From IMG/VR virus record IMGVR_UViG_3300029309_000064, positions 1-51,660 of that record: a DNA stretch of 51,660 nt; one strand, given 5' to 3'. A model generated the notes under the pieces. That model was not told the DNA's origin, did no database searches, and was given only the letters and a program-made list of their open reading frames with translations. The translations under genes and the position numbers were made by a program. This document shows positions 17,549-36,061 of this stretch, piece after piece; positions within the stretch are counted from its first letter, which is position 1, and every line of letters begins with the position of its first letter. The stretch is from a virus (taxonomy: Duplodnaviria; Caudoviricetes).

Positions 17549-18229
17549 TTACTCCTTATCGCTGTACAGATTGTTAAACACTCGTTGCGTATCCCAAACG
17601 TATTCTACGTCTTGCTTAGAGTGAAATATGTTTTGGTTTGGCCTGAAGTCAGGAGCACCTTGTCCTGTTTCAAACCAAGCTGGGTGAGTTACTCTCACTC
17701 TGTTATTGGGCAACGCAACTATGTTACCAGTATATTCTCCTGCATCTAACAACTCCAGCACATGTGATTGTTTATGCTGGGCAGGATCATCTGCTACTTC
17801 GTTATCTGTATAATCAACTGTAAAATAATACTTAGCTGGATAAAACTCATTATCAATCTTTGCAATCCAAGGCGCTGGGCTTGCTCTGTTAAGCACGTAA
17901 ACAGAGTGATAATGTGACATACAATCCCAAGGTTGTGCCATATACGGAGGTAGTTCAGTGGGCCATTCTTCTAGTGGAGTATCAGCTACTAAAGCAGTAA
18001 GGGGCATCCTAGCCCACATAGCTCCTCCGTGAACGTTTAGGTCTTCGTCCGATTCGTCTGACTCGCACCCTGTAAATATAACTTGGAAGCTTAGAGTCCT
18101 GTTTGGCATCGTTGTCACTGCTATCACCATGCAGTGCAGAAACTCTCCGTGATATTCTTCTAAGTTCTTTGTATACTCTCTTCTTACCCATGCTTTAAAA
18201 TAAGGTATGTTACTTTGAAGATACGGCAT
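17549..18229 (-). CDS. Conserved hypothetical phage protein (226 aa)
   Basis: Long ORF with HGGAMWARMP, QPWDC and PNNR motifs; function unknown. Confidence 0.7.
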   Translation of the reverse strand: MPYLQSNIPYFKAWVRREYTKNLEEYHGEFLHCMVIAVTTMPNRTLSFQVIFTGCESDESDEDLNVHGGAMWARMPLTALVADTPLEEWPTELPPYMAQPWDCMSHYHSVYVLNRASPAPWIAKIDNEFYPAKYYFTVDYTDNEVADDPAQHKQSHVLELLDAGEYTGNIVALPNNRVRVTHPAWFETGQGAPDFRPNQNIFHSKQDVEYVWDTQRVFNNLYSDKE

Positions 18230-19048: not shown

Positions 19049-19333
19049 CTACCAAGCCTTACAAGACCAGTAACGTGCAGTAAATTTATCTTTAGCTGTA
19101 TCACAATTGTGCCTAGCACGAAAGCTCTTACGTCTTTCAGGGTTATCTTTCTTGATAGACATGTTAGGGTCCCCAAAACGTACAACTTTTATTTGATCAC
19201 CCTTCTTAGCTAGTACGGCTGACTTCTTTGACTCGCCTGACAAACGTTTAGGCTTGTTATACCCAGGAAAAGTTTCCCCACGATACTTTAACTTACCACT
19301 AGGTAGTCGTTCTACGTCTTTAGTTGTAGCCAT
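19049..19333 (-). CDS. Basic conserved phage protein, DUF6321-like (94 aa)
   Basis: VRFGDPNM...RRKSFRARHNC...ARYWSC motif. Confidence 0.7.
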   Translation of the reverse strand: MATTKDVERLPSGKLKYRGETFPGYNKPKRLSGESKKSAVLAKKGDQIKVVRFGDPNMSIKKDNPERRKSFRARHNCDTAKDKFTARYWSCKAW

Positions 19334-19599
19334 TACTCACCGTATCCTCGTGTTCGATTAGGGTCTAGGACTTCATGTGACTCCAAGTACCCTTCCATGT
19401 ACATAGCTCTCTCTACATGATCTAAATCATACTTAATTCCTGTACGATTGTAAATAGCTTCACGCACATAGAATACATCTGACTTAGGAATGTGTACTTT
19501 ATGTAAGAAACGTGTGTCCTCTGATGCTAAAGCTTCATAAAAGTCTTCAATAACAGACTCACTTGCATATAGTTGTACCTTTTTTTTGTACATTGTCAA
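19333..19599 (-). CDS. Hypothetical protein, first gene of the late operon (about 85 aa)
   Basis: ORF track; coupled to the next gene. Confidence 0.6.
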   Translation of the reverse strand: MTMYKKKVQLYASESVIEDFYEALASEDTRFLHKVHIPKSDVFYVREAIYNRTGIKYDLDHVERAMYMEGYLESHEVLDPNRTRGYGE

Positions 19600-19611
19600 G
19601 TCTTTATTTAA

Positions 19612-19745
19612 GGAAAAAGATAAAAAGTACTACAAACGTCTAGATGTACATGAGGGAGAGGAGACACAGATGGAGTTGTATCATCTGAACGTCTGTAGTA
19701 CTTATAGTTTAACTACAAGTTATTATTATTATAGTAGTTATGTAA
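19612..19745 (-). ncRNA. Candidate small RNA: long hairpin with anti-RBS loop and intrinsic terminator
   Basis: Stem 19626-19702 (AGUACUACAGACGU/ACGUUUGUAGUACU), loop ACUCCAUCUGUGUCUCCUCUCCCUCA, then UUUUAUCUUUUU; upstream TTGACA at 19776-19771; 5' end approximate. Confidence 0.6.
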
Positions 19746-19871
19746 TTATATTATCATATATTTAATTATATGTCAATAGTTTATTTATATTTAATTATAT
19801 TATTGTTAGTTTAACTATAAGTTGTACTATCCTATGTCCAATTCTTTATGTTTTTACTATAAAGTTTAACT
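19706..19871. repeat. Three copies of AGTTTAACT in an AT-rich intergenic tract
   Basis: Copies at 19706-19714, 19808-19816 and 19863-19871. Confidence 0.6.
19748..19776 (-). promoter_or_regulatory. Sigma70-like promoter TTGACA-17-TAATAT
   Basis: Perfect -35; AT-rich -10 region. Confidence 0.5.
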
Positions 19872-19890
19872 TAGCTGCTACTGCTACGCA

Positions 19891-19918
19891 GTTATACATA
19901 AAAATATACCCTAGTCAA
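19891..19918 (-). promoter_or_regulatory. Late promoter TTGACT-16-TATAAC
   Basis: Shares TATGTATAACTGYGTA and the 16-nt spacer with the capsid promoter. Confidence 0.65.
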
Positions 19919-20955
19919 GTAGTAACGTTACGTAACTTTACTCATATTTCTTTAATAGCTTGTATTATTAGACAAACAACCATGTCCGTATACAAAATAT
20001 AGTACTCTAAAAGTAAAAATCCCGTGTGTTGCAGAGTATGTATACATATACGGCATACCCCCCGATGGCCCTCGCCCGACCCCACTATCGTTCTTAGTCT
20101 GATTGCGGCATTTCATAGGTCAAAAGCGACATAGTAAAACTAAAAAGAGCAATTCAAAACCGATTCATACTCATAAGTTATTGTTTTTATTACACTTTAT
20201 TACAGATAGGGTATCAGTAAACTTAGGAATTGGACTTATTTACGTTCAAATCTGGACTGATTCGCTGAAAACAAATAGTGGATGCACAACTTAGAACGAA
20301 TCAGGAACAAACGCAGCTTTTAGAACAACACGAGAACATTACCAGTATATCCCCCATGTCATGCTGCACAGATACACCCCAAGCTTTTTTTGCCATTATA
20401 ATGTATAAAACTTTTTTTGTTTATCGTGCATTTTTTTCTTGCAATATGTTTTTGTTTCGTGTCATGGTTATCACATGGAAAGCAGAACACAGCGAAACAT
20501 TCGAAAGACTAAGTTTCCAACATGACGCACCACGCAAGGCCTAGCAATCAAGTGGGCCACGAATAAAAGACTAAACTAATACTTGACTACCAAACTACAA
20601 ACTGACAGACTAAATGTAACAAAACAGAAAGGACAACCAAAGCGACACACAAAAGATTAGACATAAACGTAGCAATAGCGCATAGCCTAGCGCAAGAATA
20701 AAGCGTGAATGGAGCCTGGATTTCCAGTGCCTCTTGGCCCGACGATAAGTCACGATAGCAATAAATGTGTACGGCACTAAGCTATCTGAAAGAGTTGGCA
20801 TACTCATACCCATTGAAAAGATGATAACCTACTGATTGTCTTTGGATGTTTTTTGTTATGACACAAGCTGACTAATTTAGGCCAACCTAAACTTATGCTT
20901 GACGTATGGGTTGGCTTGTGTCTTACTGAACACATCAACACAATGAGGTGACACA

Positions 20956-21117
20956 ATGACATTATATACCCTACCCCATAAATTTACCGTACATCGTTCT
21001 AAAATAGATGGGACTAGCTTTGTTCTAATGTGTAACGGTAATTTTGTTTCTTGTGCAGAAACGCTAGATGATATTTTTATCACCTATGGTAATCAATTGA
21101 AATATGCAAAAGGGTAA
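20956..21117 (+). CDS. 53-aa early hypothetical protein
   Basis: GAGGTG RBS, ATG 20956, MTLYTLPHKFTVHRSKIDG... Confidence 0.55.
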   Translation: MTLYTLPHKFTVHRSKIDGTSFVLMCNGNFVSCAETLDDIFITYGNQLKYAKG

Positions 21118-21123
21118 GACACC

Positions 21124-21711
21124 ATGACACAATACACACGCAACATTCTTAAAGTGTACAAGCAATGCACTAGTGATGAGATACAACACGGCATGACTTG
21201 GTACGCTGACGCTAAGTCTGACGCTCAAAGCATGGCTGACAAGTACGAGCTACCATTGCACATTGTAGTTGGCGTAATTGCCGCACTCAGTCCGACTAAT
21301 CGCTGGGAGCGTAATTTGATTGACGCTGACAATATGCTTGATGTCTTTGTATCAGGCGGCTATGTTGAAAGCTGTACACCATGTACGTACAAGACGATGC
21401 GAGACAAAGCGTGGTCTATCCTACAGACTACACCACATGACGCTGACGCTGTAGCTTTCATACTCAAAGGGCCAAAGATTACAGACTTCTTTTACTGTAT
21501 TATGGGTGAGAATGTATGCGTCATTGACGGACACGCTTGGTGCATCGCTAACAATGACAGACGCACTATGCAGGAAGTACCAAGCATAGGTAAGAAGCTA
21601 CGTGCTGAACTACAAGAGTGCTACAGACGTGCAGCGAAGAAACATGGCATCACAGCATATCAGATGCAAGCTGCGACTTGGGTAGCGTGGAAACGTATTC
21701 ACAATGTTTAG
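21124..21711 (+). CDS. Conserved early phage protein (DUF7178-like; possibly HhH glycosylase-like fold)
   Basis: WY...GVIAALSP..RWERN...GPKITDFF...VIDGHA...QMQAATW motifs. Confidence 0.6.
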   Translation: MTQYTRNILKVYKQCTSDEIQHGMTWYADAKSDAQSMADKYELPLHIVVGVIAALSPTNRWERNLIDADNMLDVFVSGGYVESCTPCTYKTMRDKAWSILQTTPHDADAVAFILKGPKITDFFYCIMGENVCVIDGHAWCIANNDRRTMQEVPSIGKKLRAELQECYRRAAKKHGITAYQMQAATWVAWKRIHNV

Positions 21712-21713
21712 GC

Positions 21714-21742
21714 TTGACAAATAAACTAAACTATGATCTAAC
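21714..21742 (+). promoter_or_regulatory. Possible early promoter TTGACA-17-TCTAAC
   Basis: Perfect -35 in the intergenic gap; weak -10. Confidence 0.4.
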
Positions 21743-21770
21743 TATATCGAACACATAAAGGAGACACATC

Positions 21771-21998
21771 ATGTTCGTACTATTCGCAACCAAGCCACTT
21801 AACGATGGCACTAACGGATTCCGTTTCAACTTTGCAGGTGTCAAAGGTCTGACACGTAAGCGCAAGCACGCGAGCCGTGGCTTCAAGATTACACGTAATG
21901 ATTGCATGACTGCACTGCACTTAGGCAAGCGTACCATCTACGTAGAACAAAAGTTTAACCGTAACACTAAGCGTAAGCTTTGCCACTTTGCAGGTTGA
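21771..21998 (+). CDS. Basic early protein (75 aa)
   Basis: AAGGAGAC RBS; ORF track. Confidence 0.7.
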   Translation: MFVLFATKPLNDGTNGFRFNFAGVKGLTRKRKHASRGFKITRNDCMTALHLGKRTIYVEQKFNRNTKRKLCHFAG

Positions 21999-22000
21999 TT

Positions 22001-22168
22001 ATGCTGACACACATGACTAGGGATATCTTGGCAGAGGCATGGCACGATTGTGTCTCTGCAAGAGATAAACTAAAAGCACTAGATGAGTTTTACTTTTCTT
22101 GTGTACACGAAGACACAGTGAAAAAGCTAGACGATAGCTTGCACACAATAGCTGAACTACTCAATTGA
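22001..22168 (+). CDS. Hypothetical protein (55 aa)
   Basis: ATG at 22001 within ORF 21980-22168, AGGT upstream. Confidence 0.5.
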   Translation: MLTHMTRDILAEAWHDCVSARDKLKALDEFYFSCVHEDTVKKLDDSLHTIAELLN

Positions 22169-22183
22169 ACAGGAGACTGCTTA

Positions 22184-22309
22184 ATGTTTAAGATGTATTA
22201 CGAATGTCCATGTGGTGAAGAGTGGGAAATGGAATGGGAGTGCTGTTGTAATGATCGTTGCCCATCATGCAACAGAGAAAATGAAGCAGTAGATATTGAG
22301 GATATATAG
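22184..22309 (+). CDS. 41-aa acidic zinc-ribbon-like protein MFKMYYECPCGEEWEMEWECCCNDRCPSCNRENEAVDIEDI
   Basis: AGGAGAC RBS; CPC and CPSC motifs; below cutoff. Confidence 0.65.
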   Translation: MFKMYYECPCGEEWEMEWECCCNDRCPSCNRENEAVDIEDI

Positions 22310-22327
22310 TAAAGGAGATATGAGACA

Positions 22328-22732
22328 ATGACAACTTTTACAAAACCAGTACTACGTGAATTAAGTAATCAACTGCAAACTTTGCTTGACAACAGTAAAT
22401 ACATAGGCACAGCGAAAGGCTTGAACGACTACGCCTTTGAGCTAGGCAACTGTAAATATGACGAAGGCGAAGCTACCTTTCAACTCAAGGTGCTTATCAA
22501 AGGTAGTAAGTCTAGACAAGAGAGAGATCTTGAAGACTTAGCAAAACTCAGTGACCTTGACACAACCAAGATTGCCACATTGCAAGGCATGAAAGTGTCA
22601 CTTGTAGGGTACAACACTAGAGCACGTAAACGCCCTTGGCTAATTCAAGACTTGACAACGGCTAAACAATATGTCTTAGATGATTACCAAGCCAGGCGTT
22701 TGTTTGGTGTAGTAGAAACAGAGGTATCTTGA
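22328..22732 (+). CDS. Hypothetical protein (134 aa)
   Basis: AAGGAG RBS; LVGYNTRARKRP motif. Confidence 0.7.
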   Translation: MTTFTKPVLRELSNQLQTLLDNSKYIGTAKGLNDYAFELGNCKYDEGEATFQLKVLIKGSKSRQERDLEDLAKLSDLDTTKIATLQGMKVSLVGYNTRARKRPWLIQDLTTAKQYVLDDYQARRLFGVVETEVS

Positions 22733-22735
22733 TAT

Positions 22736-22830
22736 GGGGAGTACGCTGGTGCGTTAATCTTATCTGTGGCAATATAGATAAGAGCCTAATTGTCTAGGTG
22801 TGGGGGGTTCAATTCCCTCACTCCTCACCA
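22736..22830 (+). ncRNA. tRNA-like RNA with CCA end but no anticodon loop
   Basis: Acceptor GGGGAGU/ACUCCUC-A-CCA, T arm GGGGG-UUCAAUU-CCCUC, D-like ACGC-UGGU-GCGU, 11-bp stem with GCAA loop, long variable arm. Confidence 0.7.
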
Positions 22831-22872
22831 TGAAACAAAATATGAGTTTAACAGTTTAGAGGAGACTACACA

Positions 22873-23208
22873 ATGAAACTTACAATCAACACAAACGCTT
22901 TCCCTGATGTACCAGAAGAACACCTCAAGGAAATGCTTGGCATATTACCCTATTGGGTACGTGAGTATAACCTTCTAGGTGAGGGCATGGACATTTTAAA
23001 CTTTATGACTGAACGGTATGGCTTTGGTAGCTTGCACCAATTCAAGGGTGGCGTACAAGAGGACGGTACGTACAGCTATCCAGAAGATCCTGACCTGCCA
23101 TACATAGGAAAGATGAACACACCCAACGGCTACGTGTACTTCTATCAGTACGCTATGCTTGCACTACCGTTGCCTAATGGTGAATACTTTGTAACAAGGA
23201 TGGACTAA
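22873..23208 (+). CDS. Hypothetical protein (111 aa)
   Basis: GAGGAG RBS; YPEDPDL..., FYQYA and VTRMD motifs. Confidence 0.7.
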   Translation: MKLTINTNAFPDVPEEHLKEMLGILPYWVREYNLLGEGMDILNFMTERYGFGSLHQFKGGVQEDGTYSYPEDPDLPYIGKMNTPNGYVYFYQYAMLALPLPNGEYFVTRMD

Positions 23209-23365
23209 TGTATTATGTAGAAACAAGAGTAGTGTTTAGAGTTGGTAATGAGTCAGATGCAAAAGACCTTTGGTGGTTAGAGGAAGCAATAGAAAAATAT
23301 CTTAGAGTAAATGAAGAGATTGTTTGTATTGATGCACCAAAGGTGACAAGGATGGACTGATGTAT
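23191..23365. repeat. 23-bp direct repeat GTRACAAGGATGGACTRATGTAT
   Basis: Copies at 23191-23213 and 23343-23365, 21/23 identical. Confidence 0.8.
23208..23360 (+). CDS. 50-aa hypothetical protein flanked by direct repeats
   Basis: TAATG coupling; ends in VTRMD like the upstream gene. Confidence 0.55.
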   Translation: MYYVETRVVFRVGNESDAKDLWWLEEAIEKYLRVNEEIVCIDAPKVTRMD

Positions 23366-23536
23366 ATCTTACTTATACTTATGGCTTCTTGGATGGCTAT
23401 GATAATAACGTCAACCTTACTAGTACAGCTAGGCGTAGACAAAAAAGCTATTGACACCATAGATATCTTTGTGATATACGTTCAGATATTCTTAATAACT
23501 TACACACTAAGGAGACTAAAACAATGGATGATGTAA
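23360..23536 (+). CDS. 58-aa membrane protein with two hydrophobic segments
   Basis: TGATG coupling; MYILLILMASWMAMIITSTLLVQLG... Confidence 0.4.
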   Translation: MYILLILMASWMAMIITSTLLVQLGVDKKAIDTIDIFVIYVQIFLITYTLRRLKQWMM

Positions 23537-23688
23537 TACCTCTACAGCAATACAGCGTAGACTTGCAGCGTGAGATTGACGATGCAGAATGGCTTGGCGA
23601 GTTTGATCGTGCTGATGCAGACAAACGAGAGCTTGAAGATGTCAAGCGTATGATTGACAATGGCGAACTATGGTATGCAACATTCTAA
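23524..23688 (+). CDS. 54-aa acidic protein MDDVIPLQQYSVDLQREIDDAEW...
   Basis: AAGGAGAC RBS; TTGACA at 23451 upstream. Confidence 0.65.
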   Translation: MDDVIPLQQYSVDLQREIDDAEWLGEFDRADADKRELEDVKRMIDNGELWYATF

Positions 23689-23700
23689 GGAGAGAGAGAC

Positions 23701-24006
23701 ATGATTATTGAAGATCAAACAGTAGAAGTAAAAGTATGGGATCACAATGACGCAGTTATCTTTGTGTATGAAAGTATACACGAGAAGACAGATGAATTAC
23801 ACGAGGGTGTACCTGTTTGGAAGGGCTATAAAAAAGTTCTTACTGCCATACCTGTAAACTTTTGTTACGGTTCTTTATCTAAAGATGAACAGCTAGATAA
23901 GGTATGCAAAGTAGCTGATGCATTGAGTGAATTGTACTCTGATGATGATTCAAATGAAATAGGTGTCTCTTACTACATCAACCATGATCCGTATGTAAAT
24001 TGCTAA
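23701..24006 (+). CDS. Acidic hypothetical protein (101 aa)
   Basis: AAGGAG RBS; ORF track. Confidence 0.65.
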   Translation: MIIEDQTVEVKVWDHNDAVIFVYESIHEKTDELHEGVPVWKGYKKVLTAIPVNFCYGSLSKDEQLDKVCKVADALSELYSDDDSNEIGVSYYINHDPYVNC

Positions 24007-24007
24007 C

Positions 24008-24100
24008 ATGGTAGCTGGATCACAGATAATCTTACCGTTCTTGATAGCTTACGTAGGTGGCTTCATCTACTTCTACTTGAAAGGTAGTGACGAGGAGTAA
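24008..24100 (+). CDS. 30-aa single-TM peptide
   Basis: MVAGSQIILPFLIAYVGGFIYFYLKGSDEE; fills the gap. Confidence 0.4.
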   Translation: MVAGSQIILPFLIAYVGGFIYFYLKGSDEE

Positions 24101-24103
24101 CGT

Positions 24104-24313
24104 ATGGCCTTGTACATTAAAAGAGTTCTTATCGCCCTCTCAGTATTGGTTAATGTAATACTTGGCGGTATGAACAACCAAACGTTTAGCGCTAGGAATT
24201 GGCAATGGAGAAGGGATCGTAAGCCTAACTTGGTTTGGTTGATTGATCTCACAGTAGGGAAAGGACACTGTTCAGAATGTTGGGTTTACTGGAAGACACG
24301 CAGGAAATGGTAA
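24104..24313 (+). CDS. Small conserved protein (69 aa)
   Basis: GAGGAG RBS; NVILGG.NNQTFSAR...HC motif. Confidence 0.6.
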   Translation: MALYIKRVLIALSVLVNVILGGMNNQTFSARNWQWRRDRKPNLVWLIDLTVGKGHCSECWVYWKTRRKW

Positions 24314-25197
24314 AGGCTAAGACAGTACAGCAGTTAGTGTACGCATACTTAAAGTCAGATGCGTTTCGCAAGCTAGGCCAAGCTTCACAAAAAGACTACT
24401 ATGACTGCCTAAGTATAATAGAAGATGGATTAGGACATATCAGTCTCAAGTCAGGCTTGACTGTACCTACCATGCAGAAACACTACAACGCTTGGCTTGT
24501 ACGTGGAGTTCATCGTGCAAACAAGATAGCTGCGATCATGTCTATACTTATTAATTGGGCTACGAAGAATAACTTACGTGTCTTCAACCCTATGCCGTAC
24601 ATAGACAAGACACCTAACCCACCTCGCAAAGTTACATGGGAGCCAAGCCAGGTTAAGCTGTTCTTGGATACAGCGTACAGCCAGTGGAAGTGGCGATCCA
24701 TAGGCTTGATTGTACACATGGCTTACGAGTGGGGGCAACGTGTAGGTGATATGCGTATGCTGTTATGGAACGCTATAGACTTAGACAAAGGACGCTGTGA
24801 CTTTGAGCAAAGCAAACGAGGTGAGGCAGTGCACTTGCCTATCAGTGATGGCTTGATGCACGTACTGAGACAACAACACGAAACGTTTAGCTTTCAAGTC
24901 TTGGTAGCTCCACAGATACAGCCTAGTGATGGAGCGTACAAGCCATACACGAAGGAAGGTCTTCACGTACACGTCAATGCAATACTGGAGGAAGCTGGAC
25001 TGCCAAGCCACCTGACAGCTATGGATATGAGGCGTACAGCTATTACTGAAATGGTTGAAGCTGGTGTAGATATAACACAGATCAAACAAGTTAGTGGTCA
25101 CACCAGTATAAATAGCTTGACTCCGTATATCAAACACACGTATACTGGTGCATCAGAAGCATTAGCCCAGCGCAGTGCGTACAAGGATAAAGAGTGA
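24307..25197 (+). CDS. int: Tyrosine recombinase / integrase
   Basis: Catalytic set GQRVGD (R), DMRRT, SGH and PY; ATG at 24307 within ORF 24277-25197. Confidence 0.88.
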   Translation: MVKAKTVQQLVYAYLKSDAFRKLGQASQKDYYDCLSIIEDGLGHISLKSGLTVPTMQKHYNAWLVRGVHRANKIAAIMSILINWATKNNLRVFNPMPYIDKTPNPPRKVTWEPSQVKLFLDTAYSQWKWRSIGLIVHMAYEWGQRVGDMRMLLWNAIDLDKGRCDFEQSKRGEAVHLPISDGLMHVLRQQHETFSFQVLVAPQIQPSDGAYKPYTKEGLHVHVNAILEEAGLPSHLTAMDMRRTAITEMVEAGVDITQIKQVSGHTSINSLTPYIKHTYTGASEALAQRSAYKDKE

Positions 25198-25829
25198 TGA
25201 AATCTTGTAAAACATGCGGTAAAGATACTGATGAATTATATAAACATCATATAATCCCTATAGCTAATGGAGGTAAAGACAAAAAAGAAAACATTATAGA
25301 TATATGTGTAGATTGTCATAGCATAGCACATGATGTAAGTTTTAAAAGTTCTAAAGGCCCAATTAAAAATGGAATTAAAAAAACAAAAGATGCACATGCT
25401 TACTTCTGTACTCTTGACGATAATTTTTGGTTAAGTTTTTTTGATGATTTGAATTTTGAAAATAACTATCTATATTGCTTTGTATGGGGAGGTTTTATGT
25501 GTGGTGAAATATCTGGATCAGATTTGATACGTATGTTAGAAGATAATTTTAAAAAAAGAAAGAACATAATAAACATAAGTGATAAAACCATAAGAGACAT
25601 TAAAAGTATATATGAATATCGTAAAGAAGTAGATGCATTTAAAGATAAATTAAAGCAGGAAAAATCTAAAAAAAACTACCCATCAAATAGAGTATCTAAA
25701 GTGGACAATAAAAAAATTAAAGAGTTACTAGATCAGGGTTTAAACAAAGCAGAGGTAGCAAGAACTCTTAACGTAAGTAGGATGACGGTTTATAGAGCAA
25801 TTAATATTAAGGATAACACAGATGGATAA
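25194..25829 (+). CDS. HNH endonuclease with C-terminal helix-turn-helix
   Basis: CKTC...HHIIPIANGG...N...CVDCH; C-terminal NKAEVARTLNVSRMTVYR; more A-rich than its neighbours. Confidence 0.8.
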   Translation: MMKSCKTCGKDTDELYKHHIIPIANGGKDKKENIIDICVDCHSIAHDVSFKSSKGPIKNGIKKTKDAHAYFCTLDDNFWLSFFDDLNFENNYLYCFVWGGFMCGEISGSDLIRMLEDNFKKRKNIINISDKTIRDIKSIYEYRKEVDAFKDKLKQEKSKKNYPSNRVSKVDNKKIKELLDQGLNKAEVARTLNVSRMTVYRAINIKDNTDG

Positions 25830-26637
25830 CTACATAGAAGAGACACTGGACTTAACTGAGGGTGAGTCGATACGCAAGGCTTGTCCTAAGTGTGGTAGCA
25901 AGAATACTTTCACTGCACGTAAGGTTGACGGTAGGATTATCTATAACTGTTATAAATTATCGTGCGATCTCAAAGGCATGGTGTCCACAGCTATGACTGC
26001 AGAAGAGATGGATTCTTACTTTAGGAAGCCCTTAGTAGAAACATACAACAATAACAAAGAGTTAACCACCTTTGTTTATCCAGAGAACGTAGTCGATGGC
26101 AGCGCTGCACAAGATGGACAACTACGTAGATTTATTATGCGTTGGCCTATACTTAACCATGAAAAGTTAATGTATGACGTTAAGGATAAACGTGCAGTCT
26201 TTCCTATCTATGAGGATAATAGATTAGTAGATGCAATAGGACGTGCGTTAGATGGAGCTATACCAAAGTGGTATAGATACAATGGTGTAGGAAGTTGCTA
26301 CAAGAGGTGTATAGGTAAACCTAATGGCGTATATGTTATAGTCGAAGATGTTATCAGTGCTATCACTGTGGCTAAACGTATGCCAGGAACTACTGGCTTT
26401 GCTATACTTGGCACTAGCTTGACACAGGATCATCTAGCTGATATAAGTGACAATGCGTCATGCTGTCTGGTTGCACTTGATCCTGATGCACTAAGTAAGA
26501 GTATGCAGTTTAGTAAAAAGATACAACTTTGGACTGACTTACCTGCTTGGGTGTTGCACGTTGAGGATGATATCAAGTATGAACGTAAGAATGATATGGA
26601 TACTTTAAGGAGTCTGATAGATGGAGCGATTGAATAA
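25822..26637 (+). CDS. DNA primase (zinc finger plus TOPRIM)
   Basis: CPKC...CYKLSC; IVEDVISA; ALDPDA. Confidence 0.85.
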   Translation: MDNYIEETLDLTEGESIRKACPKCGSKNTFTARKVDGRIIYNCYKLSCDLKGMVSTAMTAEEMDSYFRKPLVETYNNNKELTTFVYPENVVDGSAAQDGQLRRFIMRWPILNHEKLMYDVKDKRAVFPIYEDNRLVDAIGRALDGAIPKWYRYNGVGSCYKRCIGKPNGVYVIVEDVISAITVAKRMPGTTGFAILGTSLTQDHLADISDNASCCLVALDPDALSKSMQFSKKIQLWTDLPAWVLHVEDDIKYERKNDMDTLRSLIDGAIE

Positions 26638-26758
26638 ACAGAATCCTATAGCTAAAGATTTGCGGCAACCTAAGTACAAGCAACGAGTTATACCTGATAA
26701 GAAAAAACCTAAACCAGTACGGAAAGAAAAGCATAAAGGAAATAAGGATGAAGTATAA
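26621..26758 (+). CDS. 45-aa basic ArfA-like protein MERLNKQNPIAKDLRQPKYKQRVIPDKKKPKPVRKEKHKGNKDEV
   Basis: AAGGAG RBS; fills the primase-nuclease gap; N..A..L..P.(F/Y).QRV...KK....RK.KH pattern as in ArfA. Confidence 0.55.
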   Translation: MERLNKQNPIAKDLRQPKYKQRVIPDKKKPKPVRKEKHKGNKDEV

Positions 26759-27251
26759 AAAGTCTTGGCAAGAAGGTAGAGAAGCTGAAAAAATATTTAT
26801 CGAAAGAAGAGGTAATAACTTTATCAGAAGGGCTAGTAAAGAAGAAGACATCCATGAACATTGGGATGTTCTAGATAGTGAACTAGGAAGGATAGATATA
26901 AAAGCAGCAAAACGTAAGTATAGACATGGTAGTGTTGACGGTACAGTTTGGTGGGAACTTAGGACGGTAAAGCGTCCCCCTAAAGGCGAATCAAAAGAAG
27001 GCTGGGGAGTGCCTAACGGTATTGATAGGCTTATTGCTGTTAAGATAGAAGATAATTTTTATCTAGTCAAACCAGAGAAAATAATAGAAGATTTACGTGG
27101 GAGATGCAAAGAATATTATCGTGGTGAGTTTGGATTACATTCAAGGCCAGGAAGAGGAGATTTAATGACTATACTACCACATGAGTACGTTATAGAAAAT
27201 GCAACTTGTATTGTAGGGGCATCATCGGAGGTTAAACCATGTATAAATTAA
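26748..27251 (+). CDS. PD-(D/E)XK nuclease-like protein (167 aa)
   Basis: G.EAE..F, HWD, IDIK and WELR motifs. Confidence 0.6.
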   Translation: MKYKKSWQEGREAEKIFIERRGNNFIRRASKEEDIHEHWDVLDSELGRIDIKAAKRKYRHGSVDGTVWWELRTVKRPPKGESKEGWGVPNGIDRLIAVKIEDNFYLVKPEKIIEDLRGRCKEYYRGEFGLHSRPGRGDLMTILPHEYVIENATCIVGASSEVKPCIN

Positions 27252-27562
27252 TAGCAGCACTGTTTGTGCTTGCAGGTACAGCACACGCAGGTCAACTACA
27301 AAATAAACCTGTCTTATGTGGTAGTGGTGCAGAAGTTTTTGCTACTATTGAACTAGGAGAACAACAACTAATTTATAAAGCAACGCAAGTCACTACAGTA
27401 AGATCTCTTAACGGCGTTGCTCCCGATCCAGTTCTTTTACCTATGTCCATCTTTATGAATTTAGATAAAAAAACTTATACTGTTTTAGAGTATCATCCTA
27501 GCTACAATATGTACTGCATTATAAGTTTTGGCAATCAAGGAGAGTTTGCCAGTGAAGATTAA
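27239..27562 (+). CDS. Exported hypothetical protein (107 aa)
   Basis: Signal peptide MYKLIAALFVLAGTAHA; two Cys. Confidence 0.6.
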   Translation: MYKLIAALFVLAGTAHAGQLQNKPVLCGSGAEVFATIELGEQQLIYKATQVTTVRSLNGVAPDPVLLPMSIFMNLDKKTYTVLEYHPSYNMYCIISFGNQGEFASED

Positions 27563-28298
27563 AGCAACATATATAAATCATATGGGCAATGATATTACAG
27601 TAGTAAACGCTGCTCGTGTGTCTTTTGGTAAAAGATCAGGAATGATTTGTGTAGATAATGTACTAGGCAAATGGGAGCTTGAAGAAAAAGATAGTAAATT
27701 AATATATTATCTTGCCAAGCACAAACATATGTCACCGTTTGGTCACTGCTTTGTTACCTTTCATGTAAAGGCTCCTATCTTTGTAGCACGTCAACTAGTC
27801 AAGCATAAATTCTTGCGATGGAATGAGATTAGTAGAAGGTATGTTGACAGTGAGCCTGAGTTTTATGTCCCTGAGTTTCGTGAAGCAGTTGCAGATAAAA
27901 AACAGGGATCAGGAGATACTTTAAACTCTGAAAATTTAAGAATACGTTTTGAAAGAGATATGGTAAGTTTTAAACATAAGTACGGGTATCTATTACACCA
28001 AAAGGTTTGTCCAGAGCAAGCACGTATGGTACTACCACAGTCTACCATGACTGAGTGGTACTGGTCAGGTAGCCTTGATGCCTTTGCTGATATGTGTAAT
28101 TTGCGCTGTGCTTCTGATACACAACACGAAACACGCATAGTTGCTACGCAGATTAGTGCTAAGATGCTTAACCTGTTTCCTGTATCGTGGAATGCTTTGG
28201 TAAAAGTTAGTGAACATCAAGCAGAAAAGATGACTGACTTTACAGTATCTCCAAAAGATATATGGAAAGATGGTGATGGAGGGGAGTTGTTTGTATGA
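27552..28298 (+). CDS. thyX: Flavin-dependent thymidylate synthase
   Basis: [19 protein letters not shown]...[15 protein letters not shown]; GTG start at 27552 likely. Confidence 0.93.
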
Positions 28299-29320
28299 GA
28301 CTAGAGAATGAAATTAAACTAGACTTTAAAGACGTTCTAATAAGACCAAAGCGAAGCACCCTTGGTAGTCGCAAGCAAGTTGAATTAACTAGAGATTTTA
28401 AGTTTAAAAATTCTCTTGGGGGGTATCAAGGTATACCCATAATGGCTGCTAACATGGATGGCGTTGGTACTTTTGAAATGGCAAGAGCTTTAAAAGAACT
28501 TGGTCTGTTTACTTGTTTAGTTAAGACATACACACCTGAAGAGATCATTGACTTTTTTAAAAGTGATCAACGATTATATCAAAGCGTAGCTGTAAGCATC
28601 GGTATCACTGATGCTGATCTGGTAAAGTGGCACGAGGTTTATTCTCAAGAGCACAGTGTAAAATATGTTTGTATTGATGTTGCTAACGGTTACAGTGAAA
28701 ACTTTGTAGGTTTTGTAAAAGAGTTTAGAGATAGATACCCTGAGATAGTTATCATAGCAGGTAATGTAGTCACTGGTGAAATGACAGAAGAATTAATACT
28801 AAGTGGTGCTGACATAGTTAAAGTTGGTATTGGTCCTGGTTCAGTTTGTACAACAAGAATACAAACAGGTGTTGGCTACCCACAACTGTCAGCTATAATA
28901 GAGTGTGCTGATGCTGCTCATGGTCTTGGTGGTTTAGTTATTGCTGACGGTGGTTGTACCTGTGCTGGTGATGTTGCAAAGGCTTTTGGTGCAGGTGCAG
29001 ACTATGTAATGCTTGGTGGTATGTTTGCTGGTCACGATGAAGGTGGCTCTGAAATAATAGATGGCAAGGTTCAGTTCTACGGCATGAGTTCTAAAGCTGC
29101 TAATGACAAACACTTTGGTGGGCTAAAAGAATACAGAGCATCTGAAGGTAGGGATGTTCAGATACCACACAAAGGAAAAATATCGGGTACGGTTCAAGAA
29201 ATACTTGGTGGTCTTCGATCTTCTTGTACTTATGTAGGTGCAAAAAGTTTAAAGAATTTAAGTAAGTGTACAACTTTTATTAGATGTACCCAGACACACA
29301 ACTCTGTTTTTGTAAAGTAA
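28295..29320 (+). CDS. guaC: GMP reductase
   Basis: [50 protein letters not shown]. Confidence 0.93.
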
Positions 29321-29334
29321 AAGGATGCTAGTCA

Positions 29335-29529
29335 GTGTTACCTAGAGAAGCTGCACAGATAGAAGCAGAAAAAACATATGCTGAGTTTATAAGATGGACA
29401 AAGATTGCATGTAAGTGGATTGCAATAACGCTATTTGTGGTTGTGGTTGGTTGTAATAACGGTGTTGAAACAGATAAGGATGCAACAGGAAGTAAATACA
29501 ATGGTGAAGTATATGACCCAAGAATATAG
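29335..29529 (+). CDS. Small membrane protein (64 aa)
   Basis: AEKTYAEFIRWTK followed by a hydrophobic segment. Confidence 0.5.
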   Translation: MLPREAAQIEAEKTYAEFIRWTKIACKWIAITLFVVVVGCNNGVETDKDATGSKYNGEVYDPRI

Positions 29530-29674
29530 AAAAGATATACGTCCCATGACAGAAGAGGAAAGACAAAGAGCAAAGGAAAAAGAAGCTTACAACACAGTTG
29601 GATTTAACTTATGTGTTAGCTGTGGCTGTCCTACACCTAACACTTGGTGTGAGTTTTGTTTGATGGAGGAATGA
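29501..29674 (+). CDS. Small zinc-finger protein (about 57 aa)
   Basis: CVSC...CEFC; ATG at 29501 after AGGA. Confidence 0.55.
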   Translation: MVKYMTQEYRKDIRPMTEEERQRAKEKEAYNTVGFNLCVSCGCPTPNTWCEFCLMEE

Positions 29675-30894
29675 TGGAGTTAGCATTAATAAGAACCCTT
29701 ATGGACAAGGAGTTCTACGACAATAACAAAGGTATCAGGACGCCTGATAATCTATTTAGTAAAGATGTGCGTGGCATTAAGAGAACCTTAGACTACGCTA
29801 TGGAAACATATGAGAGGAGTATAACACCTGCAGAACTAGAAGGATTATTCTTTACACACAACGTCTTAACTACAGCGAATAAAGATTCGTACAGAGAGTT
29901 GTTCAAGAAGATAAACACAGCAGAACCTATGGCATCTGACATTGCACAGGAAGTTATGGGTAACTTATTTCAGAAGTTAGTAGGAGAGGAGATAGCAAAC
30001 TTAGGTATTAAGTATGTCAACGGTGTAGAGAATACACTGGAGCCTGTGCGTAAGATAATAGAAGACTATCAGGATGACTTCATGCCTAACCTCAAGATTG
30101 ATTGGGGTGACATATCTATAGATAGTCTACTAGAAAAGGCTGACATCCAAGCTAAGTGGAAATTTAACATACCATCACTTAAAAGACGCATAGAAGGTGT
30201 GTCAGGTGGGCATTTAGTTTTGGTAGGCGCAAGGCCAAATACAGGCAAGACATCATTCCATGCTTCTATTATAGCGTCTGATGGTGGGTTTGCTAGGCAG
30301 GGTGCGAAGTGTATAGTTTTATGTAATGAAGAATCCTATGATCGTGTAGGTGCTAGGTATCTAAGTGCTGCATCCAACCTATCTATGGAGGAGGTCAAAG
30401 GTAACTACGCTCTAGCGGCAACAAGGTACAAACCAGTGCACGATAACATCAAGATTAAGGATAGTACAGGTAAAGATATGCGCTGGGTTGAAGCTGTAGT
30501 AAAAGCATACCAGCCTGACATCTTAGTGCTAGACATGGGTGATAAGTTTGCTAGTAAAGGTAACGCTGACTCACATGTGTACTTAAAGGACGCAGCTATA
30601 CACGCACGTAACATAGCCAAGCAGTACGACTGTGCTATTATATGGATGTCACAACTGTCTGCTGATGCTGAAGGTAAAGTATACGTAGATCAATCTATGA
30701 TGGAGGGTAGTAAGACAGGTAAGGCAGCAGAGAGTGACTTGATGATCTTGATATCTAAGAACCCACAAGTAGAGGGCCAAGATGAACAAGATCCACAAAG
30801 ACACTTAAACATAGCTAAGAATAAACTACGTGGTGGATGGCATGGTGTTGTACACTGTGAGTTGGATGGTAGTAGATCAAGGTATACAGCATGA
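29671..30894 (+). CDS. SF4 (DnaB-like) replicative helicase
   Basis: Walker A GARPNTGKT, ILVLD, SQL and AKNK motifs. Confidence 0.9.
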   Translation: MMELALIRTLMDKEFYDNNKGIRTPDNLFSKDVRGIKRTLDYAMETYERSITPAELEGLFFTHNVLTTANKDSYRELFKKINTAEPMASDIAQEVMGNLFQKLVGEEIANLGIKYVNGVENTLEPVRKIIEDYQDDFMPNLKIDWGDISIDSLLEKADIQAKWKFNIPSLKRRIEGVSGGHLVLVGARPNTGKTSFHASIIASDGGFARQGAKCIVLCNEESYDRVGARYLSAASNLSMEEVKGNYALAATRYKPVHDNIKIKDSTGKDMRWVEAVVKAYQPDILVLDMGDKFASKGNADSHVYLKDAAIHARNIAKQYDCAIIWMSQLSADAEGKVYVDQSMMEGSKTGKAAESDLMILISKNPQVEGQDEQDPQRHLNIAKNKLRGGWHGVVHCELDGSRSRYTA

Positions 30895-32933
30895 GAAGAG
30901 TTCTTGATGTAGAAAACTCTATCACTTTACGTGATGGTAAGATACACAACGATCCATTTGAACCTAGTAACACACTTACACAGGTGGGTGTGCTTTGCTT
31001 AGATACACAACAGCAGTCTCTGCTTTGCTTTGACCATCAAGAAAAAAATAACTCAGAAGACAACAAGTGTAAACTACAGAGGTGGCTTGACTCTACCACG
31101 CTACTAATAGGACACAACTTGCAGTATGACTTGTCATGGTTGTGGGCTAGTGGATTTACTTATGATGGCGACATATATGATACCATGCTGGCTGAGTATC
31201 TGCTTTTGCGTGGACAAAAAGAACCTTTGAGTTTAGAGCAATGCGCCCAGCGCAGACAGTTAGAGTATCAGAAGGATGATACACTAAAGTCTTATTACAA
31301 AAAAGGATATAACACAAATGAAATACCCTTGGATGAACTTAGCTATTATTTGTCTTGCGATCTTCTTAGTACTGGTGAGTTGTACAAATCCATTGAAAAA
31401 GACTATCAAGACCCTGCCTCAACTTCCCTATATAACGTCAGAGACATTACCTTCCGCACCTGCAAGTCCCTTGCCAGAATGTACATGCGAGGGTTCAGGG
31501 TGGATACTACCGCCCTCAAACATGTCCGTGATGAGTTCCAACGAGAGCGAAACGAAATCGAAGATAGATTGCAGGAGCAAGTGCGAACACTCATGGGAGG
31601 AACACCCATAAACTTAAACTCACCAGAACAACTATCTCAAGTTTTCTTTAGTAGAAGAATACACAACAAGAAAGAGTGGGCTGACTTGTTTGAGTTTGCA
31701 GGTACACTTAAAAACTTCCAAGATATAGTAGAGAAGAACAGTGATCTTATCTTGAAGACATACGCTGTGACATGCCCTACCTGTAAAGGTAAGGGAAAAA
31801 CATATAAAGTAAGGAAGGATGGCACAAAGTATGCCAAACCTAATAAATGTAAGGACTGTGATGCAAGAGGCTATCAGCTACGTGAGTTACGAGAGGTTGC
31901 AGGTCTACAGTTTAGAGCGCCTAACAAGTCTTGGATTAGTGCTAACGGTTTTAGCACAGGTAAAGATAAACTAGATGTCCTTATAGCTAATGCAAAAACA
32001 AAAGGTATGAAAGATGCAGAACGATTTATTACGGATGTTAAAAGGCTTTCTGCTATTAGCAGTTATCTCAGTAGCTTTGTGGATGGTATTTCCACCTACA
32101 CTAAAAAAGATGGACTCCTCCACGTTGGACTTACCCAGCATATCACCAGCACAGGTAGATTTTCTGGAAGAAACCCTAACATGCAGAACATGCCAAGAGG
32201 AGGAACCTTCCCTGTAAAGCGTGTGTTTATTTCGCGCTGGGCTGATGGTCACATATTGGAGGCTGACTTTGCCCAGCTTGAGTTTCGCACAGCAGCGTTT
32301 CTTGCACAGGATGACACAGCTATGCAAGAGATAGACACAGGGTTTGATGTACACAGCTACACAGCAAAGGTTATTTCTGATGCAGGGCAACCTACTACTA
32401 GACAGGAAGCCAAAGCTCACACATTTGCACCTCTCTTTGGAGCTACCTCGTATGGCAGAAGTAAAGCAGAGGGTGCGTACTACGAGCACTTTGTAGAGAA
32501 GTACAAAGGTATAGCTAGGTGGCACAAGGAATTAGGTAATGAGGCACTACGCTTTCAAAAGATAACTAACGTAAGTGGTAGGCAATATGCTTTCCCTGAC
32601 GTTACACGTAGAGCGAATGGTAGTGTGTCACACTTTACTAGGATTAAGAACTACCCTGTGCAAGGTTTTGCTACAGGTGATGTAGTACCGCTTGTCTTGA
32701 TAGAATTAGATGCTAGGTTAGAAAAACTACACTCAGGTATAGTTAACAGTGTGCATGATTCTGTAGTTGTAGACGTACACCCAAGCGAAAAAGAATACGT
32801 GGTTGAAATGATAGACACATTGAATGAAGATCTTAATAGTATAGTGGAGGAAGCGTATGGCATAAAAATAAACGTGCCTTTATTACTAGAAGCTAAAATA
32901 GGAAAGAATTGGCTTGACATTAAGGACGTTTAG
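30891..32933 (+). CDS. polA: Family A DNA polymerase with 3'-5' exonuclease and inserted DnaJ-type zinc finger
   Basis: Exo DVE, GHNLQYD; TGRFS, ADFAQLEFR, KAHTFAPLFG, NYPVQG, VHDS; insert CPTCKGKG...CKDCDARG. Confidence 0.95.
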   Translation: MRRVLDVENSITLRDGKIHNDPFEPSNTLTQVGVLCLDTQQQSLLCFDHQEKNNSEDNKCKLQRWLDSTTLLIGHNLQYDLSWLWASGFTYDGDIYDTMLAEYLLLRGQKEPLSLEQCAQRRQLEYQKDDTLKSYYKKGYNTNEIPLDELSYYLSCDLLSTGELYKSIEKDYQDPASTSLYNVRDITFRTCKSLARMYMRGFRVDTTALKHVRDEFQRERNEIEDRLQEQVRTLMGGTPINLNSPEQLSQVFFSRRIHNKKEWADLFEFAGTLKNFQDIVEKNSDLILKTYAVTCPTCKGKGKTYKVRKDGTKYAKPNKCKDCDARGYQLRELREVAGLQFRAPNKSWISANGFSTGKDKLDVLIANAKTKGMKDAERFITDVKRLSAISSYLSSFVDGISTYTKKDGLLHVGLTQHITSTGRFSGRNPNMQNMPRGGTFPVKRVFISRWADGHILEADFAQLEFRTAAFLAQDDTAMQEIDTGFDVHSYTAKVISDAGQPTTRQEAKAHTFAPLFGATSYGRSKAEGAYYEHFVEKYKGIARWHKELGNEALRFQKITNVSGRQYAFPDVTRRANGSVSHFTRIKNYPVQGFATGDVVPLVLIELDARLEKLHSGIVNSVHDSVVVDVHPSEKEYVVEMIDTLNEDLNSIVEEAYGIKINVPLLLEAKIGKNWLDIKDV

Positions 32934-32942
32934 TGGTATAAC
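32914..32942 (+). promoter_or_regulatory. Sigma70 promoter TTGACA-17-TATAAC
   Basis: TTGACA 32914-32919, TATAAC 32937-32942. Confidence 0.7.
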
Positions 32943-32974
32943 TAAGACTCTTTTAATATTGAAAGGAAAACAAT

Positions 32975-34683: not shown

Positions 34684-34895
34684 TGACAACAGTAGTAATT
34701 GATGAAGTAGAGTACGATACAGAGAACTTTACAGAAGAGCAAAACAATATGGTAGCTGAGTTGCAATACAATGCAAACATGCAACGTCAACTTACCTATC
34801 AATTAAGTACACTTAAAGCAGTAGGTGAGATCTTAGCATCTCGTGTTAAACAATCCTTAACAGAGAAGAAGGATGACAAAGAAGAGACGTCATAA
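34683..34895 (+). CDS. Hypothetical coiled-coil protein (70 aa)
   Basis: IDEVEYD..NFTEEQ motif. Confidence 0.6.
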   Translation: MTTVVIDEVEYDTENFTEEQNNMVAELQYNANMQRQLTYQLSTLKAVGEILASRVKQSLTEKKDDKEETS

Positions 34896-35316: not shown

Positions 35317-35660
35317 TGCCTTACACAGTGAAGGACGATGAAGTAGCAATACTTTTAAGACCTGCAAGTTTTGATACAGACGGAGAATGGACAGGTGAGT
35401 TAGAAACAAGCTTGGCTTGTGGCGCAATGGTACAGACAGACATGGAAACTATGGGGTATTTAGTTCACTTAGCTACATTAATGGGTACATTTTTATCAAT
35501 GGCTCAAGATGATGAAAATCTGTATGCATCAGTAGCAGAAAGAAGAGACTACATGATAAGCCTTGACAAACAAAATGAATCGGTGTATGAAAGGGTAGAG
35601 GGAACTGATGGTAAGGTTCTTAAACTTACTAAGTGGACTAAAACAGAGGGTAATGCATGA
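35316..35660 (+). CDS. Hypothetical protein (114 aa)
   Basis: Coupled ORF ending KTEGNA. Confidence 0.65.
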   Translation: MPYTVKDDEVAILLRPASFDTDGEWTGELETSLACGAMVQTDMETMGYLVHLATLMGTFLSMAQDDENLYASVAERRDYMISLDKQNESVYERVEGTDGKVLKLTKWTKTEGNA

Positions 35661-36060: not shown

Positions 36061-36061
36061 A

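Follow-up and report, generated by a model that had tools for sequence, protein, structure and literature searches.

The sequence analysed here, referred to below as the window, is the IMG/VR virus record IMGVR_UViG_3300029309_000064 over its full length of 51.66 kilobases (kb), with an estimated completeness of 94%. Its closest named relatives, the Roseobacter phages CRP-207, CRP-2 and CRP-603, are podophages of the HMO-2011 type, and the cultured relatives are known to infect Rhodobacteraceae. Phages of the HMO-2011 type rank with the most abundant viruses of the surface ocean; to our knowledge, nothing is known of the timing of gene expression in this group. The subject of this report is a hairpin element located between the two gene arms of the window. 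It consists of a candidate promoter, a long hairpin with a pyrimidine-rich loop and a U-rich tract, all on the minus strand, and its loop is complementary to a variant of the ribosome site that occurs at early genes.

Genomic context

The window is organized in two divergent arms, a layout that is common to CRP-207, CRP-2 and CRP-603. The minus-strand (late) arm runs from 19593 to 2 and resumes at 51660-39211, and it carries the structural and lysis genes. The plus-strand (early) arm (20956-38750) opens with 11-12 small genes to which no function is assigned; these are followed by an integrase gene (24277-25197, plus strand; PF00589, E 2e-19), an HNH endonuclease gene with a helix-turn-helix (HTH) tail, the primase gene (assigned by synteny) and the replication genes. 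The arms are separated by a divergent non-coding region of 1.35 kb, and the hairpin element lies at the minus-strand edge of this region. The first gene of the late arm (19333-19593, minus strand) encodes a protein of 86 amino acids (aa) that served as the anchor for collecting relatives. This gene has no Shine-Dalgarno (SD) sequence, and its product matches no Pfam or PHROG family; a search for prophage copies found no relative of the protein in bacterial genome contigs.

Promoter, hairpin and flanking signals

The candidate promoter, P1, lies at 19748-19776 on the minus strand and comprises TTGACA (19776-19771), a 17-nucleotide (nt) spacer and TAATAT, with a TG upstream. It matches the sigma-70 consensus at 10 of 12 positions, the TG being present as well, and the transcription start is predicted at approximately 19741. 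A sigma-70 scan of the window returned no excess of sites (7, compared with 9.2 +/- 3.4 in shuffled sequences), so the weight of P1 rests on its conservation (discussed below).

The RNA downstream of P1 is predicted to begin with a small 5' hairpin (19710-19740, minus strand) of 7 pairs, AACUACU...(A)GUAGUU, in the minimum free energy (MFE) structure; a similar small hairpin appears in the folds of the L013 clade. It is followed by the long hairpin (19625-19703, minus strand), which spans 79 nt and contains approximately 25 pairs in three stacked helices (16+5+4). The apical loop of the long hairpin (19651-19676, minus strand) is 26 nt in length, reads ACUCCAUCUGUGUCUCCUCUCCCUCA, is rich in pyrimidines and is unpaired in both the MFE and the centroid structures. 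Folding of the 177-nt minus-strand RNA from 19776 to 19600 gives an MFE of -38.0 kcal/mol, compared with -21.7 +/- 3.3 kcal/mol for shuffled sequences (z -4.9), and 0 of 200 shuffles match the minus strand of the hairpin stretch in stability; the z-score of the plus strand of this stretch is -2.6. Directly 3' of the hairpin is the U-rich tract UUUUUAUCUUUUUCC (19610-19624, minus strand). Nine of the 12 nt that follow the stem in the window are U, with a range of 4-10 across 28 family members. This tract may act as a terminator tail or as an Hfq site, and it may also double as an AT-rich stretch that precedes the next TTGACA. The loop of the hairpin exceeds the 8-nt limit of the consensus terminator scan, and the hairpin was therefore not called by it. 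A first-pass annotation of this DNA, made from the letters alone, had described a minus-strand TTGACA promoter, a hairpin, a 26-nt loop and a U-tract at this site, and all four are present, with a fold that is stable relative to shuffles (z -4.9; 0/200).

A further promoter-like element, TTGACA-N16-TACAACTAT, is found at 19569-19599 on the minus strand, where it overlaps the start codon of the first late gene. The ATG of this gene is embedded in TTGACA-N16-TA[C/A]AAC[T/A]AT in 14/14 diverse relatives, including the hairpin-less phages HMO-2011, CRP-1 and CRP-345. The spacing is held even where the ATG has moved by 3 nt, and third codon positions are invariant; the loci with the element include L073, L074 and L075. 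Over the 17 nt of which this TTGACA forms the 3' end, identity to the corresponding stretch of P1 is 82% (repeat D3 of the window repeat analysis). The element may serve as a second promoter or as a site of sigma-dependent pausing; its -10 sequence resembles the alphaproteobacterial consensus TANAWC.

On both sides of P1 there is a copy of the near-palindrome TAGTTTAACTA (19705-19715 and 19807-19817, 102 base pairs [bp] apart). No other exact copies occur in the 51.6-kb window, and an imperfect third copy is located at 19862-19872 (see also repeats D2 and D6). These copies may be operators. At the equivalent position, CRP-207 has a different repeated motif, ACTGTAACACTTA.

Conservation and covariation of the hairpin

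Relatives of the locus were collected with the 86-aa protein as anchor (32 IMG/VR loci), and the GenBank relatives were added. Among the 34 loci with sufficient upstream sequence, 31 keep the same architecture on the late-arm strand, the exceptions being L029-L031. The conserved order is promoter, long hairpin with a pyrimidine-rich loop of 16-30 nt, U-rich tract, TTGACA and ATG, and the hairpin lies 25-67 nt 5' of the late-gene ATG in all clades. The hairpin carriers are relatives of CRP-2, CRP-207 and CRP-603 and form at least 10 clades, between which the stem sequences are unrelated and yet always pair. The hairpin is not present in the more distant CRP-9, CRP-1, CRP-345, HMO-2011 and one Manatee Spring phage. 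A link between the hairpin and the presence of an integrase was considered and rejected, as the hairpin-less HMO-2011, CRP-1 and CRP-345 carry an integrase too. In a scan of IMG/VR, a 14-mer taken from the loop matched at least 117 stretches, mostly by chance; 27 stand in the context of hairpin, promoter and late gene, and these add the clades L082/L165 (with a stem of approximately 40 bp), L114 (in which GUCUCC occurs twice) and L119/122/179.

Pairing in the stem is maintained by compensatory change, as seen in three alignments. In the MAFFT alignment A1, 7 of the 21 consensus pairs show compensatory double changes. In a second MAFFT alignment, A2, which contains 15 sequences, 99.3% of 450 cells pair (slid controls, 20-52%) and the covariation score of 0.118 is reached by 0/500 shuffles; three pairs have double changes, a number equalled by 6/500 shuffles. 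A covariance model built from A1 (two clades only) recovers the orthologue of the hairpin in all remaining clades that carry one, with 28 distinct sense-strand matches, and gives no match in the 8 hairpin-less loci or the 9 chance-hit loci that were submitted to it. Within the window it finds this site only, together with the antisense of the site. In the model-fitted alignment of the 28 distinct rows, which leans towards structure, 89.9% of cells are paired, compared with 22-46% when the partner is slid, and double changes are seen in 20 of the 21 pairs. Stem covariation had been put forward by the first-pass annotation as a check on the hairpin, and compensatory changes are found in A1, A2 and the model-fitted alignment alike.

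The strand can be read from the wobble pairs: the model-fitted alignment contains 53 G-U cells and 14 A.C cells, and A2 contains 66 wobble cells at several positions, including one G-U pair that is invariant in 15/15 sequences. The z-score is better for the strand corresponding to the minus strand of the window in 15 of 16 representatives, and its energy is lower in 13 of 16. A promoter of the form TTGACA-17/18-TAnnnT is present on the same strand, 6-95 nt 5' of the hairpin, in 17/17 representatives, of which 16 have an exact TTGACA. No Rfam family reaches its gathering score anywhere in the window; a match to mir-3179 in a relaxed Rfam scan (30 bits, compared with a gathering score of 90) was discarded as spurious and reflects a generic long hairpin. 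Covariation, strand asymmetry and the conserved promoter together point to a minus-strand RNA structure, and we therefore conclude with high confidence, from comparison of sequences, that the element is a conserved RNA structure read from that strand. Its structure, strand, promoter and loop conservation are established computationally, and it represents an RNA family that has not been described before, in a phage group of high abundance.

The part of the element that is conserved is the loop. Its core is the 10-mer GUGUCUCCUC, an extended anti-SD sequence in which the anti-SD CUCC is lengthened on its 5' side. GUCUCC is found in 24 of 28 distinct family members, mostly as GUGUCUCC followed by further C and U, and the remaining 4 carry AUCUCC plus GUCACC. 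The family thus has a conserved seed in a variable scaffold, with stems that differ and covary around a GUCUCC loop core that is kept. The L020 clade has GUAUCUCC plus GUGUCACCUCA in place of the usual core; GUGUCACCUCA is perfectly complementary to TGAGGTGACAC, which is found at the ribosome sites of two early genes carried by the same contig.

Complementarity of the loop to early-gene ribosome sites

Several plus-strand ribosome sites of the genes that precede the integrase carry an extension that is complementary to the loop core. They are GAGGTGACACA at 20945-20955, with its GAC(AC) extension, AGACAC at 21117-21122, AGGAGACACA at 21759-21768, AGGAGAC at 22171-22177, a site with a GAC(AC) extension at 22313-22327, AGGAGAC (at 22860) within 22858-22866, AGGAGAC at 23510-23516 and GGAGAGAGAGAC at 23689-23700, before the start at 23701. 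The matches listed by the first-pass annotation are all in the sequence, and the late ribosome sites that it named do lack the AC extension. AGGAGAC is not enriched in the window as a whole (6 copies against 4.3 expected; 24/100 shuffles reach 6), and 5 of the 6 copies are on the plus strand inside 19659-23516.

We compared 70 start regions of the window: 11 pre-integrase, 23 other early-arm and 36 late. The starts of the window were curated and those of the relatives are as annotated in GenBank; the pre-integrase class was defined after the list of matches in the first-pass annotation was known, the integrase gene being a natural boundary. The mean duplex energies with the whole loop are -15.9 kcal/mol for pre-integrase, -13.2 for other early and -11.3 for late regions, and the pre-integrase value is equalled by 0/500 shuffles of the loop; when the CU block is kept and the 5' 13 nt are shuffled, 0/400 reach it. 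For the 10-mer core the corresponding means are -11.3, -7.3 and -6.1, whereas CUCCUC alone gives -5.8, -5.2 and -4.2. The 5' extension of the loop core is the discriminating part. Ranked by the 10-mer, 7 of the top 10 among the 70 regions belong to pre-integrase genes. A control with the 16S ribosomal RNA (rRNA) tail also separates early from late starts (p = 0.004), and therefore part of the energy signal is SD strength only.

Motif counts give a similar picture. Among sites that contain GGAG, GGAGAC is found at 4/6 pre-integrase, 0/10 other early and 0/7 late sites (Fisher p = 0.0017), and GAC occurs at -14 to -1 in 10/11 pre-integrase genes as against 6/59 other genes (p = 2e-7). The first-pass annotation had proposed that the loop is antisense to the ribosome sites of most early genes. 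This holds only for the pre-integrase block of the window, where GAC is present in 10/11 genes and GGAGAC in 4/11, and does not extend to the replication genes, which are not marked (GGAGAC in 0/23).

Across phages, GGAGAC was counted when it lay within 22 nt of an annotated start. In the hairpin-bearing phages it is present at 17/110 early-arm starts (window, 4/34; CRP-2, 4/24; CRP-603, 5/27; CRP-207, 4/25) and at 0/60 late starts (p = 0.0007). In the hairpin-less HMO-2011, CRP-1 and CRP-345 it is present at 0/50 early-arm starts (p = 0.0016 relative to 17/110), even though 33 of these 50 have GGAG; among GGAG sites the contrast has p = 0.00016. A count that used no gene caller is in agreement: hairpin-bearing loci have 2-6 early-arm GGAGAC sites and almost none in the late arm, while the hairpin-less loci L063 and L065 have 1/22 and 0/17. 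GGAGAC ribosome sites are spread over many unrelated protein families, and hairpin-less orthologues (a 134-aa protein, DUF7178, helicase and thymidylate synthase) have GGAGA[A/G] instead. The co-occurrence of the loop with GGAGAC is thus established by computation.

Proposed mode of action

The reading that we favour, to which we give close to an even chance, is that the element would be an anti-SD leader or small RNA (sRNA) that represses the early genes of the phage itself in trans. We infer the production of the RNA, the position of its 3' end, its pairing in trans and the resulting repression of translation, as follows. Host sigma-70 RNA polymerase would initiate at P1, at approximately 19741, and the transcript would fold into the small hairpin and then the long stable hairpin, exposing the 26-nt pyrimidine-rich loop ahead of the U-rich tract. 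Most or many transcripts would end at this tract to give an sRNA of approximately 130 nt, or the RNA would be cut from the leader; alternatively, the late operon may retain the hairpin in its 5' leader. The loop would mimic the 3' end of 16S rRNA, lengthened by GUGU (as in the core GUGUCUCCUC), and would pair with the SD and spacer of mRNAs reading (G)GGAGAC(AC), chiefly those of the small early genes upstream of the integrase. Such pairing (7-10 bp) would be expected to outcompete the ribosome, whose 16S rRNA pairs over 5 bp, and to lower the translation of early genes. The outcome could be a timer or shut-off in lytic growth, or an RNA brake that silences early genes in the lysogen. The narrower proposal, that one sRNA with an extended anti-SD loop silences a class of the phage's own early genes whose GGAGAC sites have co-evolved with it, is made tentatively, at somewhat less than an even chance. 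In integrase-bearing phages with no recognized repressor, the element might be an RNA device for immunity or timing that is tied to the control of termination in the late operon.

Several results weigh against repression in trans. A search for sequencing runs covering 19300-20300 of the window listed no RNA data set. GGAGAC is present at only 17/110 early-arm starts in hairpin-bearing phages. The hairpin-less CRP-1 shows an early-versus-late contrast with the same 10-mer (p = 0.0017), its early SDs being stronger, and therefore the energy contrast is not peculiar to hairpin-bearing phages. In CRP-2, CRP-603 and CRP-207, 10, 11 and 9 of 300 shuffles, respectively, are as good as the phage's own loop, and the reversed loop nearly equals the true loop in all three; because the energy test replicates only weakly across phages, we rely on the GGAGAC motif counts instead. 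Of the checks proposed in the first-pass annotation, greater complementarity at early than at late starts is upheld by the motif (17/110 and 0/60), and much of the energy difference is SD strength and is seen in CRP-1 as well; in the comparison with shuffled controls the loop stands out in the window (0/500 and 0/400) and only modestly in the three relatives. Used as a whole, the loop ranks only 2 pre-integrase genes in the top 10 of the 70 start regions, and its best sites in a scan of the window are internal purine-rich stretches. The 10-mer, with at most 1 mismatch, also matches internal late-gene sites at 2942, 9424, 9592, 14505 and 19512. The primase start, which the first-pass annotation had named as a target, has to be abandoned: the 11/11 loop match over it (ACACAGATGGA, 25816-25826, plus strand) is retained in 0/3 same-clade relatives that have an identical loop, and we attribute it to chance. 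If the hairpin-bearing phages belong to one clade, as they may, the co-occurrence of loop and GGAGAC could amount to one historical event. The near-consensus P1 suggests production of the RNA as soon as infection begins, a poor fit to late shut-off. The U-tract is weak (4-5 U of 12) in L034, L035, L082, L149 and CRP-207, and a 26-nt loop is unusual for a terminator.

Alternative explanations

A rather unlikely but substantial alternative is that the element acts in cis as the leader of the late operon, being an attenuator or terminator, an RNase III processing site or a stability element that gates read-through from P1, after the logic of the PR'-6S RNA-tR' region of lambda. The conserved loop would then bind a phage or host factor, and its resemblance to early ribosome sites would be, with the same low probability, a by-product of pyrimidine richness. 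Its location, with a strong promoter on one side and the ATG of the first late-arm gene 25-67 nt away on the other, fits such a role, as do the U-rich tract that follows the stem in most clades, the candidate operator repeats on both sides of P1 and the lack of specificity in the whole-loop energy tests. The hairpin-less CRP-1 and CRP-345 have a short GC-rich hairpin and a T-rich run at the equivalent place, which suggests a general leader-terminator design. A cis-acting leader nevertheless leaves unexplained the exact complementarity of the core to a ribosome-site variant that is early-only and belongs to hairpin-bearing phages, and also why the loop, rather than the stem, is conserved. No antiterminator of the Q or N type was recognized among 17 window proteins scanned against Pfam or PHROGs, most of which have no family, several small early open reading frames (ORFs) lying outside the scan; the conserved downstream TTGACA-N16-TAcAAC may, moreover, supply the late genes with a promoter of their own. 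An sRNA directed in trans mainly at host mRNAs, with phage early matches being secondary, is improbable. It would resemble the cuckoo RNAs (CcsR/NfeR1) of Alphaproteobacteria: the cultured relatives infect Rhodobacteraceae, the CcsR RNAs of Rhodobacter are described as having anti-SD loops with CCUCCUCCC and a link to DUF1127 proteins (PMC8034643), CUCCUCCC is found within the CRP-2 and CRP-207 loops, and a late-arm protein of CRP-603, gp69, is annotated as DUF1127. Against this, the Rfam ar14/cuckoo model gives no match even at E <= 10, there is only one hairpin, the window loop does not contain the exact motif and the window has no DUF1127 gene, while the GU extension, which is absent from the cuckoo motif, matches the ribosome sites of the phage itself.

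Two further explanations would dispense with a minus-strand RNA. The hairpin could be an element of the DNA, that is, a protein-binding palindrome or cruciform serving as an operator, origin or packaging site. Its place in the divergent non-coding region between the arms and the operator-like repeats adjoining it agree with this, and we nonetheless consider it very improbable: the arms differ wholly between clades while pairing is kept, the opposite of the pattern of a protein-binding site; conservation is in the loop and not in the arms; and the strands are asymmetric with respect to G-U (53 versus 14 cells, with 66 wobble cells in A2). We give almost no credence to the remaining explanation, in which the loop does no more than provide a 31-aa gene on the plus strand (19670-19765) with its ribosome site and start. 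A strong SD and an ATG do lie within the loop on that strand, and the first-pass annotation had singled out this ORF as the observation that, if translated and conserved, would account for the loop. It is not conserved. The frame is 31 aa in length only in the window and L004, is reduced by a 1-nt indel to 9 aa in L005, L007 and L009, measures 1-13 aa in L020, L021, L025, L026 and CRP-207, and is absent in L013, L015, L034, CRP-2 and CRP-603; L032 has an unrelated 37-aa frame that begins with GTG. We reject the ORF as an explanation on this lack of conservation across loci, and the promoter and wobble pairs indicate the opposite strand.

Comparison with known regulatory systems

The RNAs c4 of P1/P7, CI of P4 and sar of P22 are likewise small structured RNAs encoded by phages, with loops that pair at or near the ribosome sites of early or antirepressor genes in the same phage, and they are made from or beside an operon leader, as proposed here. 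Complementarity to the phage's own early-gene ribosome sites, a feature of the P1 c4/P4 CI type, is found for the present element, the likeness being one of computation only. The differences are that c4, CI and sar have one or two dedicated targets, whereas this loop would address the ribosome-site class of many genes, and that the present element heads the late arm of a podophage. There is no homology to c4 or CI, and no phage RNA family was matched in the Rfam scans. Features general to trans-acting sRNAs are present, namely a conserved promoter of its own (17/17) and a conserved unpaired seed (24/28).

Other systems share parts of the proposed design. The PR'-6S RNA-tR' region of lambda similarly combines a constitutive-looking sigma-70 promoter, a short structured transcript and a terminator-like hairpin ahead of late genes; here, unlike in lambda, no Q-like protein or Q-binding element was recognized, the loop is large and conserved, and a second promoter-like element lies downstream. 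The T4 RegA protein has the same outcome as that proposed, with one phage factor repressing many early mRNAs at their ribosome sites, but in the present case the factor would be a base-pairing RNA. Staphylococcus sRNAs of the RNAIII/RsaE type follow a similar logic in that UCCC/CUCC loops block the SD of several mRNAs; they are host-encoded and unrelated in sequence, and they are without the GUGU extension of this loop.

The cuckoo RNAs (CcsR1-4 of Rhodobacter and NfeR1/ar14 of Sinorhizobium) also expose pyrimidine-rich anti-SD hairpin loops and come from Alphaproteobacteria; they are described as having at least 2 hairpins, each with CCUCCUCCC in its loop (PMC8034643). The present element, unlike these RNAs, is phage-borne and has a single hairpin, a loop of 16-30 nt and the core GUGUCUCC. 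The loop of the window reads CUCCUCUCCCUC and does not contain the cuckoo CCUCCUCCC, whereas the CUCCUCCC of the CRP-2 and CRP-207 loops corresponds to 8 of the 9 letters of the cuckoo motif. The Rfam ar14 model gave no match at E <= 10 in 19560-19800 of the window and none at E <= 1 in the CRP-207, CRP-2, L082 and L114 loci, and DUF1127 (PF06568), a neighbour feature of the CIN1 subgroup, had no match in the window at E <= 0.1. On all features tested, then, the element falls outside the cuckoo family. The DUF1127 protein of CRP-603 mentioned above, gp69 (L037 1-182), is encoded approximately 2.5 kb downstream of the CRP-603 anti-SD hairpin; in Rhodobacter, the CcsR sRNAs with their anti-SD loops are bound by a DUF1127 protein, CcaF1, which aids their maturation (PMC8034643).

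None of the papers searched reports a small RNA for HMO-2011, and among the matches listed there was no phage-encoded anti-SD sRNA of this kind acting on early genes. In a term search, a comparative genomics paper on HMO-2011-type phages (PMC9038755) contained no mention of intergenic or non-coding regions, promoters, repressors or hairpins. The probable mechanism is of a known kind; the breadth proposed for it, with one loop for a whole class of ribosome sites, is new. The element supplies a concrete conserved regulatory part, made up of a promoter, a structured RNA and a seed, for a group in which the cultured pairs CRP-2, CRP-207 and CRP-603 exist. If repression in trans is correct, the phage tunes a private dialect of ribosome sites such that one RNA addresses many genes together, a principle that would be usable in synthetic biology. 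If only the cis-acting role is correct, the element still marks a control point of the late operon.

Other features of the window

No tRNA or tmRNA was found in the window. The late arm encodes a 226-aa protein (17549-18229, minus strand) that matches PHROG 3704, labelled as ferredoxin (an auxiliary metabolic gene), at E 7e-28, with no Pfam match. Between the integrase and primase genes, the HNH endonuclease (25197-25829) has a C-terminal HTH of the resolvase type; the same arrangement is found in CRP-2 and CRP-603.

The approximately 1.1 kb between the divergent promoters (19780-20900) has no convincing ORF and includes a GC-rich patch at 20020-20090. In CRP-207, the equivalent non-coding region (L002 3600-4100) contains a CA-rich low-complexity tract and AAACGAATCA repeats. 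This region might hold attP, an origin or additional RNAs. Further towards the early arm, the sequence AGGCCAACCTA...GCTTGAC at 20857-20935 is common to the window and CRP-207 (L002 4520-4590) and is probably an early promoter region; in the window, the arms of a 12-nt inverted repeat (20857-20868 / 20914-20925) stand on either side of it. A conserved leader, ATCAACACAATGAGGTGACACAATG, belongs to the first early gene and is present also in L024 and L035.

The start context of the two arms differs beyond the SD. In the pre-integrase genes (20956-23701), ACA or ACAC often stands immediately 5' of the ATG and the second codon is often ACA, while the second codon of late genes is often GC(N).

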